In this document: one piece after another, positions 1,481 to 55,500 of the stretch | Numbering within the stretch: position 1 is the first letter of the stretch | Layout: every line of letters starts with the position of its first letter | From: Candidatus Parcubacteria bacterium | Lineage (GTDB): Bacteria > Patescibacteriota > Saccharimonadia > Saccharimonadales > 2-12-FULL-41-12 | DNA length: 64,000 bases | Assembly: GCA_019347895.1 (NCBI GenBank) | Contig: JAHWKM010000003.1 | Location: 771 to 64,770 of the forward strand | Reading direction: 5' to 3' | Translations under genes and position numbers: made by a program | The notes under the pieces: generated by a model | Told to the model about the DNA's origin: nothing | What the model saw: only the letters and a program-made list of their open reading frames with translations | The model's database searches: none

Positions 1481-1566
1481 TGTCTGCAAGACAGCCGGGC
1501 TGGCCCATCATTGCAAACATCTTGATTGATTTGTCTGCAAGACAGCCGGGCTGGCCCATCATTGCA
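1481..1566. repeat. 35-bp perfect direct repeat x2 upstream of tRNA-Lys (duplicated leader/promoter carrying a copy of the acceptor 5' strand)
   Basis: tgtctgcaagacagccgggctggcccatcattgca occurs at 1481-1515 and 1532-1566. On the minus strand each copy reads TGCAATGAT-GGGCCAG-CCCGGCTGTCTTGCAGACA, where GGGCCAG is the tRNA 5' acceptor strand followed by a hairpin. Confidence 0.8.
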
Positions 1567-1570
1567 GACA

Positions 1571-10991: not shown

Positions 10992-11789
10992 TTGATTATG
11001 TATGAGGAAGATTTAAAAAAAGCATTTAAGCTGGCTGATGTGGCTGATGAGATTGGTATGAAATATTTCATGTCGAGGGATCTGAAAGTCGAGACCAAAC
11101 CTGATGATACTCCCGTCACACAAGGCGACAAAGAAATTGAAGAAGCATTAACCAAAATTGTCGTGGAAGAATTTGGCGACAGTTACGTCGGTGAAGAAGG
11201 AGCTCGGGAAGGTAGCGGTACCCGGCGCTGGTTAATCGACCCGATAGACGGAACTAAAAATTTTCTGCGAGGCTTTCCGGTTTGGGGAAGCCTGATTTCA
11301 CTTAAAGAGGCCGATGAGGTTACTGTGGCTTGCATCTCCGCCCCCGCTCTTGGCCGCCGGTGGTGGGCTACCAAAAATGGCGGAGCTTTTACACACGACG
11401 TTAACGGTAAACAAAGGCAGATCCAAGTTTCAGATGTCAAGAATCTGTCCGATTCTTTCCTGCTACACAACGCCATGATGACATGGGACAAGCAACCGGA
11501 CGGGATTGATAAAGTCTTAAAGCTTCTTCGAAAAACCTGGCGACAGCGTCATGTCGGTGATTTTCTGGCCTTCATGTATGTGGCGGAGGGCGTGGCCGAC
11601 GGCTGCTTTGACAGCTTCCCCGCCCTCTGGGATATCGAAGCCGCCCAGCTAATAGTTGAGGAAGCCGGTGGCGCAGTCTGGACAAGCGCTAACGAGAATA
11701 CTCCAGTGGACGAAAGACGTAGCTGTGTCGCCTCAAATGGCAATTTTCAAGAAACCATATTAGAACACCTAGGATTAAGTAAGTCATAG
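10992..11789 (+). CDS. inositol monophosphatase family protein (IMPase/HisN-like)
   Basis: WLIDPIDGTKNF and WDIEAAQLIVEEAGG family motifs. Confidence 0.75.
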   Translation: MIMYEEDLKKAFKLADVADEIGMKYFMSRDLKVETKPDDTPVTQGDKEIEEALTKIVVEEFGDSYVGEEGAREGSGTRRWLIDPIDGTKNFLRGFPVWGSLISLKEADEVTVACISAPALGRRWWATKNGGAFTHDVNGKQRQIQVSDVKNLSDSFLLHNAMMTWDKQPDGIDKVLKLLRKTWRQRHVGDFLAFMYVAEGVADGCFDSFPALWDIEAAQLIVEEAGGAVWTSANENTPVDERRSCVASNGNFQETILEHLGLSKS

Positions 11790-11800
11790 CCCTGCCCTGT

Positions 11801-11806
11801 TATAAT
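11801..11806 (+). promoter_or_regulatory. -10 box (TATAAT) upstream of interrupted tRNA-Arg-like element
   Basis: TATAAT lies 12 nt upstream of the GCCCCGG acceptor start at 11819. Confidence 0.4.
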
Positions 11807-11818
11807 ATTTTGTACCGC

Positions 11819-11974
11819 GCCCCGGTAGCTCAGCTGGATAGAGCAGGAGACTTCTAAGCTCAAGGTCGTAGGTGAGAAATGCCTTGAATGGCATTTCGCA
11901 AGGTCGGAGCGCGACGGCGCGAGACATGCCGAAAAGAATTTTTAGCAGAAAATTACTTTTGGGCGAATCCTATC
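11819..11974 (+). ncRNA. tRNA-Arg(UCU)-like sequence interrupted in the T-loop by a ~90-nt class-2 module (pseudo-tRNA or novel tRNA-scaffold RNA)
   Basis: GCCCCGGTAGCTCAGCTGGATAGAGCAGGAGACTTCTAAGCTCAAGGTCGTAGGT|GAGAAATGCCTTGAATGGCATTTCGCAAGGTCGGAGCGCGACGGCGCGAGACATGCCGAAAAGAATTTTTAGCAGAAAATTACTTTTGGG|CGAATCCTATC. T-stem GTAGG/CCTAT pairs. There is no acceptor 3' strand and the anticodon stem is weak. Confidence 0.5.
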
Positions 11975-12002
11975 TTAAACCTTACAATATAAACCGGTAC
12001 CT

Positions 12003-12079
12003 GCCCCGGTAGCTCAGTGGATTAGAGCAAGACGGTTCTAACGTCAAGGTCGGGGGTTCGAATCCCTCCCGGGGTACCA
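12003..12079 (+). tRNA. tRNA-Arg (anticodon TCT), CCA encoded
   Basis: GCCCCGGTAGCTCAGTGGATTAGAGCAAGACGGTTCTAACGTCAAGGTCGGGGGTTCGAATCCCTCCCGGGGTACCA. TACAAT -10 lies at 11983-11988. Confidence 0.9.
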
Positions 12080-12117
12080 ATATAAAAGCTGGTCCTTGTG
12101 ACCGGTTTTTATATTGG
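12077..12117 (+). terminator. palindromic terminator hairpin after tRNA-Arg(UCU)
   Basis: CCAATATAAAA-GCTGGTC-CTTGT-GACCGGT-TTTTATATTGG. Confidence 0.5.
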
Positions 12118-12264
12118 ATATCTCGGGGAATCAAACCACCGACCAAAAGGTCGGGGTGAAAAATGCCTGTGGCATTTTGCAAGGAAACCTACTCTTCAAA
12201 ACTTGTTTTGAGAGACGTAGTTTCGGGCCTGCCGAAGGTAGGTCGAATCCCTCCCGGGGTACCA
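12115..12264 (+). ncRNA. class-1 tRNA-satellite element (Arg-UCU type), ends in CCA
   Basis: TGGATATCTCGGGGAATCAAACCACCGACC-AAAA-GGTCGGGGT|GAAAAATGCCTGTGGCATTTTGCAAGGAAACC...AGTTTCGGGCCTGCCGAAGGTAGG|TCGAATCCCTCCCGGGGTACCA. Confidence 0.5.
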
Positions 12265-12266
12265 AC

Positions 12267-12295
12267 TTGACAACTACTTAGCCTTATGCTATTAT
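12267..12295 (+). promoter_or_regulatory. strong sigma70-type promoter (TTGACA-17-TATTAT)
   Basis: TTGACA at 12267-12272, 17-nt spacer, TATTAT at 12290-12295. The predicted TSS coincides with the ATG at 12302. Confidence 0.6.
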
Positions 12296-12301
12296 GTAGT
12301 T

Positions 12302-12443
12302 ATGTTTGAACGAAAAGAAGATACGCATCTGCCCCTTTCTTGATCTTGAACCAAAAGTAGATACACCACCGCCCCCTCCTCTCCCGGAAAAAGAAGACAC
12401 GCCACCTTCAACACCTGGTACGCCTGAAGGAGTGTGGCTTTAG
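12302..12443 (+). pseudogene. leaderless proline-rich small ORF with tandem 33-39 nt repeats, broken by a 1-nt frame change in a C-run
   Basis: The ATG frame gives MFERKEDTHLPLS*. The shifted frame continues LDLEPKVDTPPPPPLPEKEDTPPSTPGTPEGVWL*. The repeat peptide E-x-K-x-D-T-P-P appears in both frames. Removing one C at ~12331-12334 yields one 50-aa ORF. Confidence 0.3.
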
Positions 12444-17046: not shown

Positions 17047-18081
17047 TTATTCTATAAATTTGTTAGTGTAGAGCGCGTCGAAATTGACAGTGTCAACCGG
17101 TTTGCCGCTAACGTCTAAAACCGCGTCATTGTCCAGCATGAACTGCGGGTAATTCCGCCAATAACTTTTTTCCTGGATTCCCCAGGTCTTGCCGGGTTTT
17201 TGATATTTGCCGCTCAAATACTCCTGGCTGGCATAAACCAAGCCCTCGTCATCAAAAGTACCTTCAGACGCTTCAGCTATTAAAATCCGGGCGGCTTCGT
17301 CTGGATTGTTGCGGGCGAATTCATAGCCGCGAACGGTTGCTTTCATAAAGCGTTTCAACAAATCCTCTTTTTTGGAAATAGTGTCAGGCGAACTGATAAT
17401 GTTTGGCGTGTAATAGTCCGGTATGCCGTGTTCTATGACGGGAAATGTATCTATGGCAAAACCGCTTCTCTCGGCTTGGATTTTTTCCCAGCCGTCAAAA
17501 ATCCAAACAAAATCTACCTTGCCGGATTCCAGCGCTTGAAGCGGCGCAGTAGAAACTGTTACATTTTTGAAATTGCCTTCGCCGCCGTCGTTTTTTATAG
17601 CGGCCTTCATGACCGGTTCCTCATAGGGCATACCGTAACCGCCGTAGATTTTGCCGTCCAGCTGGTCTAGCGAAGTTATGTTATCGCTTTTCCTGGTAGC
17701 GATGGATGAGGTGTTGGTGGTGATTATAGCCGCGATTGACGTCACCTGCGAATCACTGGCCGCGTTGGCTACCACCCCTTCCGTGAAACCAATACCCGTA
17801 TCGGCCTTGCCGGCGGATACTAAAGCATCAGAAGAAGCACTGGTGGAGTACGGCAAAAGCTTTAGCTCGACTCCTTCTTCTGCGTAATAACCTTGGTTTT
17901 TAGCCACATAAAGCCCGCTGTGGTTGGTATTCGGCGTCCAATCAAGCGCCAGCGTCACTTCCTCTAGCGGCTTTTTTGCTGTCTGTTCTTTATCATTATT
18001 AACATTCTTGGCTATTAAAAAAGCGCTTAGCCCAGCCACCAAGACCAGCGCGGCAATCGCAATTAATTTTATATTCTTCAC
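17047..18081 (-). CDS. NMT1/THI5-like substrate-binding protein (ThiY-like, HMP/thiamine precursor uptake)
   Basis: N-terminal anchor, then LALDWTPNTNHSGLYVAKNQGYYAEEG, typical of the NMT1/THI5 SBP family. First gene after the TPP riboswitch. Confidence 0.75.
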   Translation of the reverse strand: MKNIKLIAIAALVLVAGLSAFLIAKNVNNDKEQTAKKPLEEVTLALDWTPNTNHSGLYVAKNQGYYAEEGVELKLLPYSTSASSDALVSAGKADTGIGFTEGVVANAASDSQVTSIAAIITTNTSSIATRKSDNITSLDQLDGKIYGGYGMPYEEPVMKAAIKNDGGEGNFKNVTVSTAPLQALESGKVDFVWIFDGWEKIQAERSGFAIDTFPVIEHGIPDYYTPNIISSPDTISKKEDLLKRFMKATVRGYEFARNNPDEAARILIAEASEGTFDDEGLVYASQEYLSGKYQKPGKTWGIQEKSYWRNYPQFMLDNDAVLDVSGKPVDTVNFDALYTNKFIE

Positions 18082-18087
18082 GTTAAT

Positions 18088-18178
18088 TCTCCCTTCGACG
18101 GCATTACCCGTACAGGTTCATTGGGTTTATCCAGGTGTCAGCTGGAATTTCTCAGCCCGGCTATCCCGAGCTCCCCAT
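18088..18178 (-). promoter_or_regulatory. TPP (THI-box) riboswitch
   Basis: Minus strand reads GGGGAGCTCGGGATAGCCGGGCTGAGAAATTCCAGCTGACACCTGGATAAACCCAATGAACCTGTACGGGTAATGCCGTCGAAGGGAG. It contains the CTGAGA, ACCC..TGAACCTG and GGTAATGCC..GAAGGGA cores. TATAAT lies at 18197-18202 (minus). Confidence 0.8.
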
Positions 18179-18207
18179 TTATATTTGGTAACGATAATTA
18201 TAACAAC

Positions 18208-53590: not shown

Positions 53591-53881
53591 TGGAGGGTCC
53601 GGTGGGACTCGGCCACATCCTGCGGTCACTTTTCGCGACCCCGCTAGTTACATACTTTGAACGAGTTCAAAATCTGAAACGTAGCCTTACAAAAAGTCCC
53701 CAACTTTTCTCAACTGGAACTTTCATACTTACAGCATGCTGAAAATCTGAAAGGTTCCCTTGAGAACGTCCACTGGACGTTCTCACCCCCGACACCCTTT
53801 TGGCGTGCCGTGTTTTCAAATCTCACCAGTGAGATTCTCCAAACAAAAAACCCAGCTCTAAGCTGAGTTCTTTGTTTGGAG
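53591..53881 (-). ncRNA. class-1 tRNA-satellite element, long variant (Lys type) with duplicated middle module, ends in CCA
   Basis: Minus strand reads ...CGGCACGCC-AAAA-GGGTGTCGGGGGT|GAGAACGTCCAGTGGACGTTCTCAAGGGAACC-TTTCAGATTTTCAGCATGCTGTAAGTATGAAAG...GTTTCAGATTTTGAACTCGTTCAAAGTATG...GACCGCAGGATGTGGC|CGAGTCCCACCGGACCCTCCA. Confidence 0.45.
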
Positions 53882-54114
53882 TGTCCGGTGGGACTCGCCT
53901 CGCAAGAAAAAGAAAAAATACTTTTTCTAATGCGACCCCAAAGGCCTCTGGCCTTTCTGGGGCAAGGGGCCGGGTGAGAACTGCCCGGTGGCAGTTCGCA
54001 GAGCCGGAAGCGCGACGGCGCGCTGAGGCGGGCTCGCGAAATCCGCCAGCAGGCGGATATTTGTGAGTTGCCGAGTAGGCAATCCCGTTCGAGTCCCAAC
54101 GGAAACATCCTCCA
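53877..54114 (+). ncRNA. class-2-like tRNA-satellite element on the plus strand, ends in T-arm-like hairpin and CCA
   Basis: TGGAGTGTCCGGTGGGACTCG (antisense Lys 3' end)...CCCCAAAGGCC-TCT-GGCCTTTCTGGGG...GGGT|GAGAACTGCCCGGTGGCAGTTCGCAGAGCCGGAAGCGCGACGGCGCGCT...CCGTTCGAGTCCCAACGGAAACATCCTCCA. Palindromic hairpins flank it at 53837-53881 and 54110-54151. Confidence 0.35.
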
Positions 54115-54976: not shown

Positions 54977-55011
54977 AGCTCCGCAAAAAGCGGAGCGACG
55001 GAGAATGGAGG
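54970..55011 (-). terminator. palindromic terminator hairpin after tRNA-Lys(UUU)
   Basis: Minus strand reads CCTCCAT-TCTCCGTC-GCTCCGC-TTTTT-GCGGAGC-T-ATGGAGG. Confidence 0.5.
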
Positions 55012-55082
55012 GTCCGGTGGGACTCGAACCCACGACACCCTGCTTAAAAGGCAGGTGCTCTAACCGGCTGAGCTACGGACCC
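55006..55082 (-). tRNA. tRNA-Lys (anticodon TTT), CCA encoded
   Basis: Reverse complement GGGTCCGTAGCTCAGCCGGTTAGAGCACCTGCCTTTTAAGCAGGGTGTCGTGGGTTCGAGTCCCACCGGACCCTCCA. Confidence 0.9.
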
Positions 55083-55089
55083 TTGTTTA

Positions 55090-55321
55090 ATATTGTAAAT
55101 GATCACGGGTAAATCCACGACCCAAAGATAATTTTCTGGTGAAAATTTCTTTCGGCATGCCTCGCTCCGTCGCGCTCCGGCCTTGCGAACTGCCATCAGG
55201 CAGTTCTCACCCTGCTTAAAAGGCAGGTGCTCCCATGTCATCCGACATGGCCGTATCGTATGATACGGTAACCGGCTGACCTGTCCGCCGAAGCCTTGGC
55301 GTAGGCGGGAGCTACGGACCC
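55090..55321 (-). ncRNA. hairpin-decorated tRNA-Lys(UUU)-like RNA: three perfect hairpins inserted in the D-arm plus a class-2 module after the anticodon arm
   Basis: Minus strand reads GGGTCCGTAGCT[CCCGCCTACGCCAAGGCTTCGGCGGACAGGT]CAGCCGGTTA[CCGTATCATACGATACGGCCATGTCGGATGACATGG]GAGCACCTGCCTTTTAAGCAGGGT|GAGAACTGCCTGATGGCAGTTCGCAAGGCCGGAGCGCGACGGAGCGAGGCATGCCGAAAGAAATTTTCACCAGAAAATTATCTTTGGG|TCGTGGATTTACCCGTGATC. The non-inserted 47 nt are identical to the 5' 47 nt of the adjacent tRNA-Lys. Confidence 0.5.
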
Positions 55322-55500
55322 GCGTCGGAACTTACGGCAAAGTCTCGTTTTGCCTTTCGGCAAAAGCTTCGACCTACGCCTATGTTCCTCCTTTCAAAAT
55401 CACAAACAGTCGCTTCACTCCTTGGTTTGTGATTTTGTAGCAAAAACCTTGTGGTTTTTGCAGGATTGCTTCTTTTCACTGAAAATCAGAGAAATTAACT
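55322..55500 (-). ncRNA. hairpin-rich leader upstream of the decorated tRNA-Lys-like RNA
   Basis: Minus-strand hairpins: GCAAAAACC-ACAA-GGTTTTTGC (55440-55461), a 13-bp stem CAAAATCACAAAC/GTTTGTGATTTTG (55395-55437) and TTTTGCC-GAAA-GGCAAAA (~55347-55365). It also has GACTTTGCCGTAAGT and GGCGTAGGTCGAAGC, related to class-1 motifs. Confidence 0.35.

Follow-up and report, generated by a model that had tools for sequence, protein, structure and literature searches.

A 64-kb window (64,000 nt) of the Saccharibacteria contig JAHWKM010000003.1 contains, at 11819-11974, most of a tRNA-Arg(UCU) with an insert of 90 nt in its T-loop (all coordinates are positions in this window unless a locus identifier, L and a number, is given). 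Sequence comparison indicates that this segment is a once-functional tRNA-Arg(UCU) gene broken by an insertion rather than a tRNA-like invention or a designed module, because the closest relative found has the same tRNA uninterrupted at the same locus. A first-pass annotation of the window had presented the segment as a “class-2 module” of tRNA-like sequence, a view that gives way here to orthology with an intact gene. On balance we favour, with a probability of roughly 0.55, a course of events in which a structured, non-autonomous mobile element of about 90 nt, belonging to a Saccharibacteria-wide family, would have inserted between T-loop positions 54 and 56 of the resident tRNA-Arg(UCU) and inactivated it; the disrupted gene would subsequently have lost its acceptor 3' strand, and the working gene would be a second, intact tRNA-Arg(UCU) with its own -10 box. 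The features concerned are collected in Table 1.

Up to T54 (position 11873) the disrupted copy is laid out as an ordinary tRNA gene, with acceptor 5' strand GCCCCGG, D-arm, anticodon loop CTTCTAA, variable loop and T-stem 5' strand GTAGG occupying 11819-11872. After the insert, CGAAT and CCTAT (11964-11973) close the T-stem GTAGG/CCTAT with five of five positions paired, one of them a G.U where the closest relative has G-C. Neither an acceptor 3' strand nor CCA follows position 11974, at which point the gene of that relative runs on as CCTACCCGGGGCACCA. The earlier description of these parts, namely a 5' tRNA portion, a T-loop insert of about 90 nt, a completed T-stem and a missing acceptor 3' strand and CCA, proved exact to the base. 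No canonical tRNA is called at 11819-11974 by ARAGORN or by the Rfam tRNA model, which recognize here only 12003-12079, and the 90 nt between the two T-loop halves contain no open reading frame (ORF), leaving the element without coding capacity. The flanking tRNA part is a pseudogene, and its aminoacylation or processing by RNase P and RNase Z as a tRNA appears unlikely because the acceptor stem cannot form.

The protein of the upstream IMPase-family gene has a 100% identical NCBI entry from a candidate-phyla metagenome-assembled genome, and its next relatives are labelled Saccharimonadales. Syntenic loci were taken from relatives with 70-84% identity in this protein. In the closest of these (L145, 84% protein identity), L145:1094-1170 is an intact, uninterrupted tRNA-Arg(TCT), called by ARAGORN and located after the same promoter box at the same locus, with its first 54 bases differing from window 11819-11873 at two positions in the alignment. 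Its T-arm reads GTAGG TTCGAAT CCTAC, and the empty site ...GTAGGTTCGAATCCTACCCGGGGCACCA of L145 corresponds in the window to the filled site ...GTAGGT, 90 nt, CGAATCCTATC. The insertion therefore lies between T54 and C56, with one T lost, no target duplication and the acceptor 3' strand replaced or lost, and the two loci together represent a concrete, testable insertion event. The contig ends of L144 and L146 (82% and 76% protein identity) begin the same allele, which we term type A, at the same spot. Type A has an unusual anticodon stem, GGAGA/GCTCA, as a native feature, since it is found also in L144 and L145; its interpretation as decay was ruled out because the intact L145 allele carries the same stem. 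In the more distant L002, L003 and L147 the locus is occupied by a different tRNA-Arg(TCT) allele that is essentially the intact type B gene of the window. A single T-loop base sets L002 and L003 apart from it, and in L147 an acceptor-stem base differs in addition. The -10-like box TGTTATAAT is also found upstream of tRNA-Arg in L002, L003, L145, L146 and L147, suggesting that it is a promoter box which stands ahead of the single tRNA-Arg in relatives and ahead of the disrupted copy in the window. A covariance model of the element family (R1, see below) found no copy in L001 or L003, and L002 has the element at tRNA-His, where the window has none, indicative of a patchy distribution among orthologous loci.

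The type B gene, 28 nt downstream of the broken copy, is by its sequence a functional tRNA-Arg(UCU). It had been proposed that the tail of the module supplies the -10 box of the downstream tRNA both here and at a second locus, by tRNA-Lys. The tail TTACAATAT(A/T)AAAC is common to the two loci as claimed, but the TACAAT box is better read as the intact tRNA's own promoter, apparently an ordinary -10-like box of tRNA genes in these genomes; a TACAAT-type box also precedes tRNA-Pro. A simple sigma-70 scan of the tail and spacer found no full -35/-10 promoter. As no terminator is present between the disrupted copy and the intact tRNA-Arg, the element would be co-transcribed with the neighbouring tRNA, in this instance from the old tRNA promoter.

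The insert is a member of a widespread family. Species-representative genomes were scanned with an exact pattern for the first hairpin, which all members share; it matched at least 118 genome stretches and, counting assemblies from accession prefixes, about 98 assemblies among the matches listed, nearly all of them labelled Saccharibacteria. R1, built from a 77-sequence alignment of class-1 elements from other genomes, gave 126 matches in 100 other loci and 8 copies in the window, against 7 for a simple GTGA-hairpin-GCAAG pattern, so that the GAGAA-hairpin motif is indeed shared with class 1 as the first-pass annotation had noted. In total, the window holds nine copies or partial copies, and five of its seven tRNA genes are flanked by the element. 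The Arg copy is matched by R1 at 11863-11976 (32.9 bits, E = 2e-6), has the P1 base UGAGAA/UUCGCA together with P2 and P3, and starts after GG. Recurrence of this architecture at no fewer than 118 stretches, and at 12 metagenome loci for the subclass of the Arg copy, is far beyond chance and answers the earlier concern that the segment might not be conserved beyond this genome. The family is not described in the full-text literature that we searched, including PMC13011429 and its preprint, PMC5737381 and PMC9897764, and has no Rfam model.

The consensus core consists of three hairpins (P1, P2 and P3), around which the T-stem of the tRNA closes a four-way junction in T-loop copies. In the 77 class-1 sequences, the base of P1 (UGAGAA/UUCGCA) is invariant and includes an A.G mismatch, the long P2 hairpin contains a bulged U, and P3 has 7-8 pairs and a GAA loop, its last two pairs using T-loop bases 55-56 of the target. 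Pairing is maintained in 96.5% of alignment cells and 25 of 35 pairs have changes on both sides, a level reached by none of 500 shuffles, while slid controls pair at 32-45%. Junction bases are invariant and every helix covaries strongly across the roughly 98 assemblies among the matches listed. P3 retains a G.U pair in 68 of the 77 sequences, and the fold is therefore strand-specific, forming on the tRNA-sense strand only. Selection on this fold would act at the RNA level, or on the same-sense single strand of DNA.

The Arg copy falls into class 2b, in which P1 is as in class 1, P2 has a GCC/GGC closing stem that encloses a GGA/GA internal loop and an inner hairpin of variable sequence, and P3 is an AU-rich hairpin likewise closed by GCC/GGC. 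Its P1 spans 11873-11900, the P2 closing stem 11903-11905 with 11923-11925, the inner hairpin 11909-11920 and P3 11928-11964. All class-2b helices are present and paired, and the P2 closing stem has a compensatory U-A (GUC/GAC against GCC/GGC). A class-2b-specific pattern identified 22 stretches in metagenomes, 12 of which are true copies by tRNA-Lys, -Leu and -Glu genes, and a genome scan yielded a further copy by tRNA-Val (L029). In the class-2b alignment (A2, 14 sequences), 92.4% of cells are paired and 18 of 30 pairs have changed on both sides, again with 0 of 500 shuffles as high, which bears out the co-variation first noticed in hairpin 1. The continuation of the insert was likewise confirmed by alignment to be near-identical in the second class-2b copy of the window, in a partial tRNA-Lys, and partly shared at 53965-54049. 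These observations leave practically negligible room for the segment being a decaying tRNA pseudogene with a chance junk insertion, and for the insert itself this is already refuted. The gene is dead, lacking its acceptor 3' strand and having a T-stem G.U in place of a G-C, but the insert matches a model derived from other genomes, its substitutions respect the predicted stems, its subclass recurs at the 12 metagenome loci, and the anticodon-stem “defect” is native to an intact allele.

The second class-2b copy lies just upstream of the intact tRNA-Lys(UUU) at 55006-55082, with the insert after variable-loop position 46 and one mismatch in the inner hairpin (P2b). In the D-loop of this disrupted tRNA-Lys copy (55244-55308, minus strand) there are additional hairpins, first CCGCCTACGCCAAGGCTTCGGCGGACAGG and after it CCGTATCATACGATACGG and CCATGTCGGATGACATGG, which the intact gene lacks and which are possibly further small insertions. 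Similar leader motifs, TCGAAGCTTTTGCCG-loop-GGCAAA..., precede the same copy (55330-55395, minus strand) and a tRNA-Arg (L147:6880-6950), and may represent another tRNA-leader element. The class-2a relative on the plus strand ends in a T-arm-like hairpin and TCCA.

The P1-P2 module is older than Saccharibacteria and of wider occurrence, because units with the same P1 motif (X-class) occur in a group I intron of a Paceibacteria metagenome-assembled genome (MAG) and in tandem arrays elsewhere. The former unit lies towards the 3' end (P9) of an intron of about 300 nt in tRNA-Thr(GGU) (L100:4290-4610, minus strand), the latter comprise 92-nt and 187-nt tandem repeats in other Patescibacteria contigs, and a single X-class copy follows a terminator in a Kaiserbacteria MAG; the X-class loci besides L100 are L031:1509-1635, L110:621-836 and L087:1774-1879. 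The repeats after the X-class unit of L087 were considered as a CRISPR-like array and rejected, there being only two copies. Typical elements by tRNA-like sequence were also found in two non-Patescibacteria bins, a Calothrix MAG (L009) and a Burkholderiaceae MAG (L072), which are probably instances of mis-binning rather than true occurrence.

Around half of the 128 pattern matches have the motif start 59-90 nt 3' of a same-strand tRNA (downstream type), and in about a quarter the motif ends some 100-150 nt before a tRNA 5' end (upstream type); both classes are found in both positions. The core occurs at about 20 tRNA species, including at D-, anticodon- and variable-loop positions, and a given tRNA species, such as Lys(CTT), His or Gln, has the same module type in genome after genome. 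Upstream-type copies follow a copy of the downstream tRNA, often 100% identical, which extends from position 1 to 23, 25, 37, 46 or 51-66, and nearly all of them have a TATAAT or TACAAT box 8-14 nt ahead of the real tRNA. On the left, the junction is invariably ...GG+T followed by GAGAA, the first helix starting right after the target GG, and on the right ...GTGA is followed by CC; the ends are not uniform, however, with a last base of A or G and one or two target bases lost. Copies also nest at the GG before P3 of another copy, both in the window (53612-53793) and in L047, L126, L127 and L134. In the window example the complete inner element is followed by the outer P3 remnant and then by a tRNA-Lys 3' end with CCA. 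In three genomes the element is within an antisense tRNA-Phe fragment. No copy interrupts a functional tRNA gene: when the 128 copies were excised in silico at 134,015 boundary combinations, no intact tRNA was obtained, only chimeras with the adjacent real gene. We suggest that the family is a non-autonomous mobile element inserting at GG^YC-like sites, above all in the T-loop, which, not being excised from the RNA, would persist solely where the tRNA copy is redundant or partial.

The excision result makes it very unlikely that the element is an intron, whether miniature self-splicing, protein-spliced or excised without ligation, in tRNA genes that remain functional. Such an origin would explain the insertion in tRNA loops with a U ahead of the element, the pairing of P3 with the first downstream “exon” bases in the manner of intron guide sequences, the occurrence of the same P1-P2 module inside the genuine group I intron of L100 and the abundance of tRNA group I introns in Patescibacteria (PMC13011429). 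However, the Arg copy has no acceptor 3' strand for an exon to rejoin, the element ends vary, and its size is far below that of known group I cores. Like the element, the Patescibacteria tRNA introns are structured RNA insertions after U in tRNA genes of the same phylum-level hosts and pair with adjacent target bases, but they exceed 200 nt as opposed to about 90-130 nt and are found in the anticodon loop rather than mainly in the T-loop; the element is found only in partial or dead tRNA copies and, unlike them, never in a gene that is intact after its removal. At E <= 10, Rfam identified neither a ribozyme nor a group I intron (RF00028) over 11700-12400, which includes one class-2b and one class-1 copy. 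At gathering score only tRNA and one TPP riboswitch were found in the whole window, and no small self-cleaving ribozyme (hammerhead, hairpin, twister, pistol, hatchet or HDV-like) or omega-RNA-type family at seven other loci. Over all scans, including the L100 intron, the only matches were to tRNA, TPP, RNase P and, weakly, a group I J8/7 in that intron. Readings by eye of the motifs GGUGAGAA, GCAAGG and GGA..GA as K-turn, hairpin ribozyme or hammerhead were rejected, since the partner bases that these motifs need are not there and element copies with GAAUCC have no AGUC.

Non-canonical tRNA introns of archaea and red algae (PMC3241643, PMC9602550) likewise interrupt the D-, anticodon-, variable- and T-loops, and one gene can hold several of them, much like the disrupted tRNA-Lys copy. 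They are cut at a bulge-helix-bulge by splicing endonuclease in functional genes, whereas the element has a bacterial host, non-functional target genes and junctions at helix ends of a four-way junction. Its consensus fold has no bulge-helix-bulge at the junctions: the 5' junction is the first P1 pair, the 3' junction is the P3 end, and no 3-nt bulges flank a 4-bp helix. Intervening sequences of bacterial 23S rRNA are structured helices inserted in a loop of a stable RNA and patchily distributed among relatives. The element resembles them in both respects, but their host genes are functional and RNase III excises them with no religation of the ends, unlike the element as known here from sequence.

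Downstream copies have a more elaborate setting. The intact tRNA-Arg is followed by a terminator-like hairpin, then by an antisense copy of its T-arm and variable region that matches the tRNA at 16 of 19 aligned positions, then by a class-1 element whose insert is followed by 22 nt identical to the tRNA-Arg 3' end. The same order is typical of downstream modules, which comprise a terminator-like hairpin (61 of 65), an antisense T-arm copy, a short loop, tRNA positions ~41-54, the element and a tRNA 3' tail, often with a second terminator-like hairpin thereafter (32 of 40). The tails are 21-22 nt in length, mostly 100% identical to tRNA positions 56-76 including CCA, and track T-stem differences between genomes. 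The antisense T-arm copies are about 82% identical over 1,030 aligned positions, with a 2:1 excess of wobble-compatible transitions and yet many transversions. In minimum free energy (MFE) folds the 5' antisense copy of these modules is predicted to pair with the 3' end, giving a closed and stable-looking RNA. Among 183 tRNAs with sufficient flanking sequence, 67 have their last 14 nt repeated downstream. The class-1 model leaves unmatched at least three further conserved, structured inserts that occupy the slot between the antisense T-arm copy and the 3' tRNA copy (L028, L039, L042, L051, L073, L074, L081, L082, L083, L106, L115 and L131), one example being GAAAACAGCC-NGTG-GCTGTTTGAGTTTTCCTTGCTTGGCC.

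The main rival to a mobile element, which we consider possible though rather doubtful, is that the element and its tRNA-derived flanks are host non-coding RNA (ncRNA) genes built on a T-stem and tRNA 3'-end scaffold, with a role in tRNA expression, processing, stability or mimicry; the Arg copy might then be a 5' leader RNA freed by RNase P on cutting out the real tRNA. The covariation in every helix and the invariant junction bases are in keeping with such genes, as are the near-perfect tails that track their cognate tRNAs, the constant module type per tRNA species, the terminator-like hairpins before and after downstream modules, the closed RNA of the MFE folds and the retention of the fold in very divergent copies. 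Conversely, the closest relatives lack the element at tRNA-Arg, and L001 has six orthologous tRNAs and no element, which is therefore dispensable. The nested copies and the copy in an antisense tRNA-Phe fragment look like insertion events, and at the Arg locus the element destroyed a tRNA gene and has neither an antisense partner nor a CCA end.

The same downstream architecture, a scaffold of about 110 nt with a 21-22 nt tail that repeats the 3' end of the tRNA gene exactly and leads into a terminator, with sense and antisense target segments on either side, recalls a guide-type RNA (the omega RNA or reRNA of TnpB or IscB, or the IS110 bridge RNA) whose tRNA sequence would direct a nuclease or recombinase to intact tRNA genes so that the element homes. 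Absence of target duplications and terminal inverted repeats, end hairpins and a short fixed insertion sequence are also as in IS200/IS605 elements. We nevertheless consider a guide function extremely unlikely. No ORF for TnpA (Y1), TnpB, IscB or a DEDD recombinase adjoins any of the copies examined, none occurs in the scanned set of 67 of the 74 window ORFs, and Rfam found no omega-RNA-type family in the window or the seven other loci. In addition, upstream-type copies, the Arg copy included, have no flank of defined guide length, and cleavage of intact single-copy tRNA genes would be lethal.

Partial beside intact tRNA genes are the classic footprint of integrating genetic elements, which leave partial tRNA genes behind (PMC9897764), and one could view the disrupted copies as att-site relics of phage or island integration followed by deletion, the insert being arm sequence. 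As in such relics, an intact tRNA is flanked by its own fragment and downstream copies repeat the segment from T-loop to CCA. The T-loop is a known crossover sublocation of tRNA integration sites. A bare repeat of the tRNA-Arg(TCT) 3' end of about 15 nt, CCTCCCGGGGT(A/G)CCA, moreover occurs some 55-65 nt past the gene, behind a small hairpin, in L002:4716-4790, L003:10922-11003 and L147:7034-7113, which lack the element there. This origin is all the same barely credible. Both halves of one T-loop flank the 90-nt insert with nothing else changed upstream, and the fragments are, unlike integration relics, split by a small structured core with no island between, involve many tRNA species and several positions, and are separated from the intact gene by an antisense T-arm copy. 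Neither integrase nor cargo was found in the window ORFs scanned, both motif patterns gave zero matches in 2.9 million viral contigs, and RNA-type covariation with a conserved G.U would be unexpected for protein-binding arm DNA.

In behaviour the nearest kin of the element would, by analogy, be small structured non-coding insertions such as miniature IS200/IS605-type elements and mobile introns. Like non-autonomous IS200/IS605-type elements (PATE/MITE-like), it is small and non-coding with a strand-specific fold, has hairpins (P1 and P3) at its ends, a short, fixed 5' target, and neither terminal inverted repeats nor target duplication. Unlike them, it has no Y1 transposase or TnpB among the window ORFs scanned and builds target bases into its last helix, and its long middle hairpin with conserved bulge and loop and its invariant junction bases exceed what end recognition needs. 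T-loop targeting, a four-way junction using the target's own stem and the association with sense and antisense tRNA fragments are unusual. No transposase, integrase, reverse transcriptase or HNH domain was detected in the 67 scanned ORFs. The one nuclease-like ORF of the window, a GIY-YIG domain upstream of tRNA-Lys(CTT), was rejected as a homing nuclease as it has no homologue in the other loci fetched. The syntenic L001 has no called gene at this place. A bolder proposal, which we regard as unlikely, is that the core represents a new small mobile RNA, ribozyme-like or RNA-guided, which inserts after GG in exposed loops of tRNAs and other structured RNAs, either at the RNA level with copy-back to DNA or via a trans-acting nuclease; the tRNA-identical tail and antisense T-arm of downstream modules might then serve as guide- or exon-like segments on the cognate tRNA or its gene.

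Several points weigh against our favoured account of a non-autonomous mobile element. No mobility mechanism or partner enzyme emerged from the window ORFs scanned or the copies examined, and the mobility as cause, the transcription and the lack of splicing are what we infer from sequence. Copies within one genome differ strongly in P2 and all keep the fold; together with the tRNA-identical tails this looks like long-term selection in place, which a host function fits at least equally well. Terminator-like hairpins bracket the downstream modules, as expected of real RNA genes, and the partial-copy scaffold may precede the element, since antisense-T-arm partial copies host unrelated inserts. The account also leaves unexplained where the intact type B gene beside the broken type A gene came from.

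Saccharibacteria genomes are about 1 Mb in size and under strong deletion pressure, and despite this the element is kept at most tRNA genes of a 64-kb window and is met again in about a hundred genomes at species level. Either the tRNA genes of an entire phylum have been colonised by a mobile element that went unrecognised, or these bacteria maintain a class of tRNA-anchored structured RNAs absent from Rfam and from the literature searched. This bears on tRNA annotation in candidate-phyla genomes, where partial copies can be mis-called, on assembly breaks at tRNA genes, on tRNA gene turnover and on the reservoir of novel RNA folds.

Table 1. Features of the disrupted tRNA-Arg locus and other element-related features of the window
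Feature	Position	Strand	Basis or remarks
IMPase-family gene (inositol-monophosphatase; database sources name histidinol phosphatase)	10992-11789		Upstream neighbour
Extended -10-like box TGTTATAAT	11798-11806	+	Sequence; directly 3' of IMPase-family gene
Type A tRNA-Arg(UCU), positions 1-54	11819-11873	+	Alignment to intact L145 gene
Class-2b structured insertion element, 90 nt	11874-11963	+	Absent from L145 orthologue; covariance model; alignment A2
Type A T-loop remainder CGAAT, T-stem 3' strand CCTAT and one base	11964-11974	+	Sequence
Spacer with -10-like box TACAAT (11983-11988), 14 nt before intact tRNA	11975-12002	+	Sequence
Intact type B tRNA-Arg(UCU)	12003-12079	+	ARAGORN; Rfam tRNA, 61.1 bits
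Terminator-like hairpin (stem includes tRNA CCA), antisense T-arm/variable-region copy, AAAA loop	12080-12146	+	Sequence
Downstream class-1 element in partial tRNA-Arg copy (positions ~43-54, insert, 55-76 with CCA)	12147-12265	+	R1, 103 bits, E = 1e-23
GIY-YIG nuclease-domain ORF, 79 aa	1571-1810	-	Immediately upstream of tRNA-Lys(CTT); only nuclease-like ORF of the window
Nested/tandem class-1 elements	53612-53793	-	Outer P1-P2 53716-53793; complete inner element 53612-53722 at expected start of outer P3
Class-2a relative: same P1 and P2, GC-rich hairpin in P3	53965-54110	+	R1; sequence
Second class-2b copy, in partial tRNA-Lys(UUU)	55090-55321	-	R1; alignment

A near-consensus promoter (TTGACA, 17 nt, TG-TATTAT; 12267-12295, plus strand) begins two bases past the CCA that ends the downstream class-1 module and presumably drives the ORFs that come next. 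At this place relatives encode an aminotransferase and a PEP carboxylase, both of which are lacking in the window. A hairpin of about 35 nt, TGCAATGATGGGCCAGCCCGGCTGTCTTGCAGACA, occurs as two direct copies at 1482-1567 (minus strand), just upstream of tRNA-Lys(CTT), each containing the acceptor 5' strand GGGCCAG of that tRNA. The single TPP riboswitch of the window (18071-18187, minus strand; Rfam, 56.2 bits) precedes genes for an NMT1/THI5-like protein and an ABC transporter.

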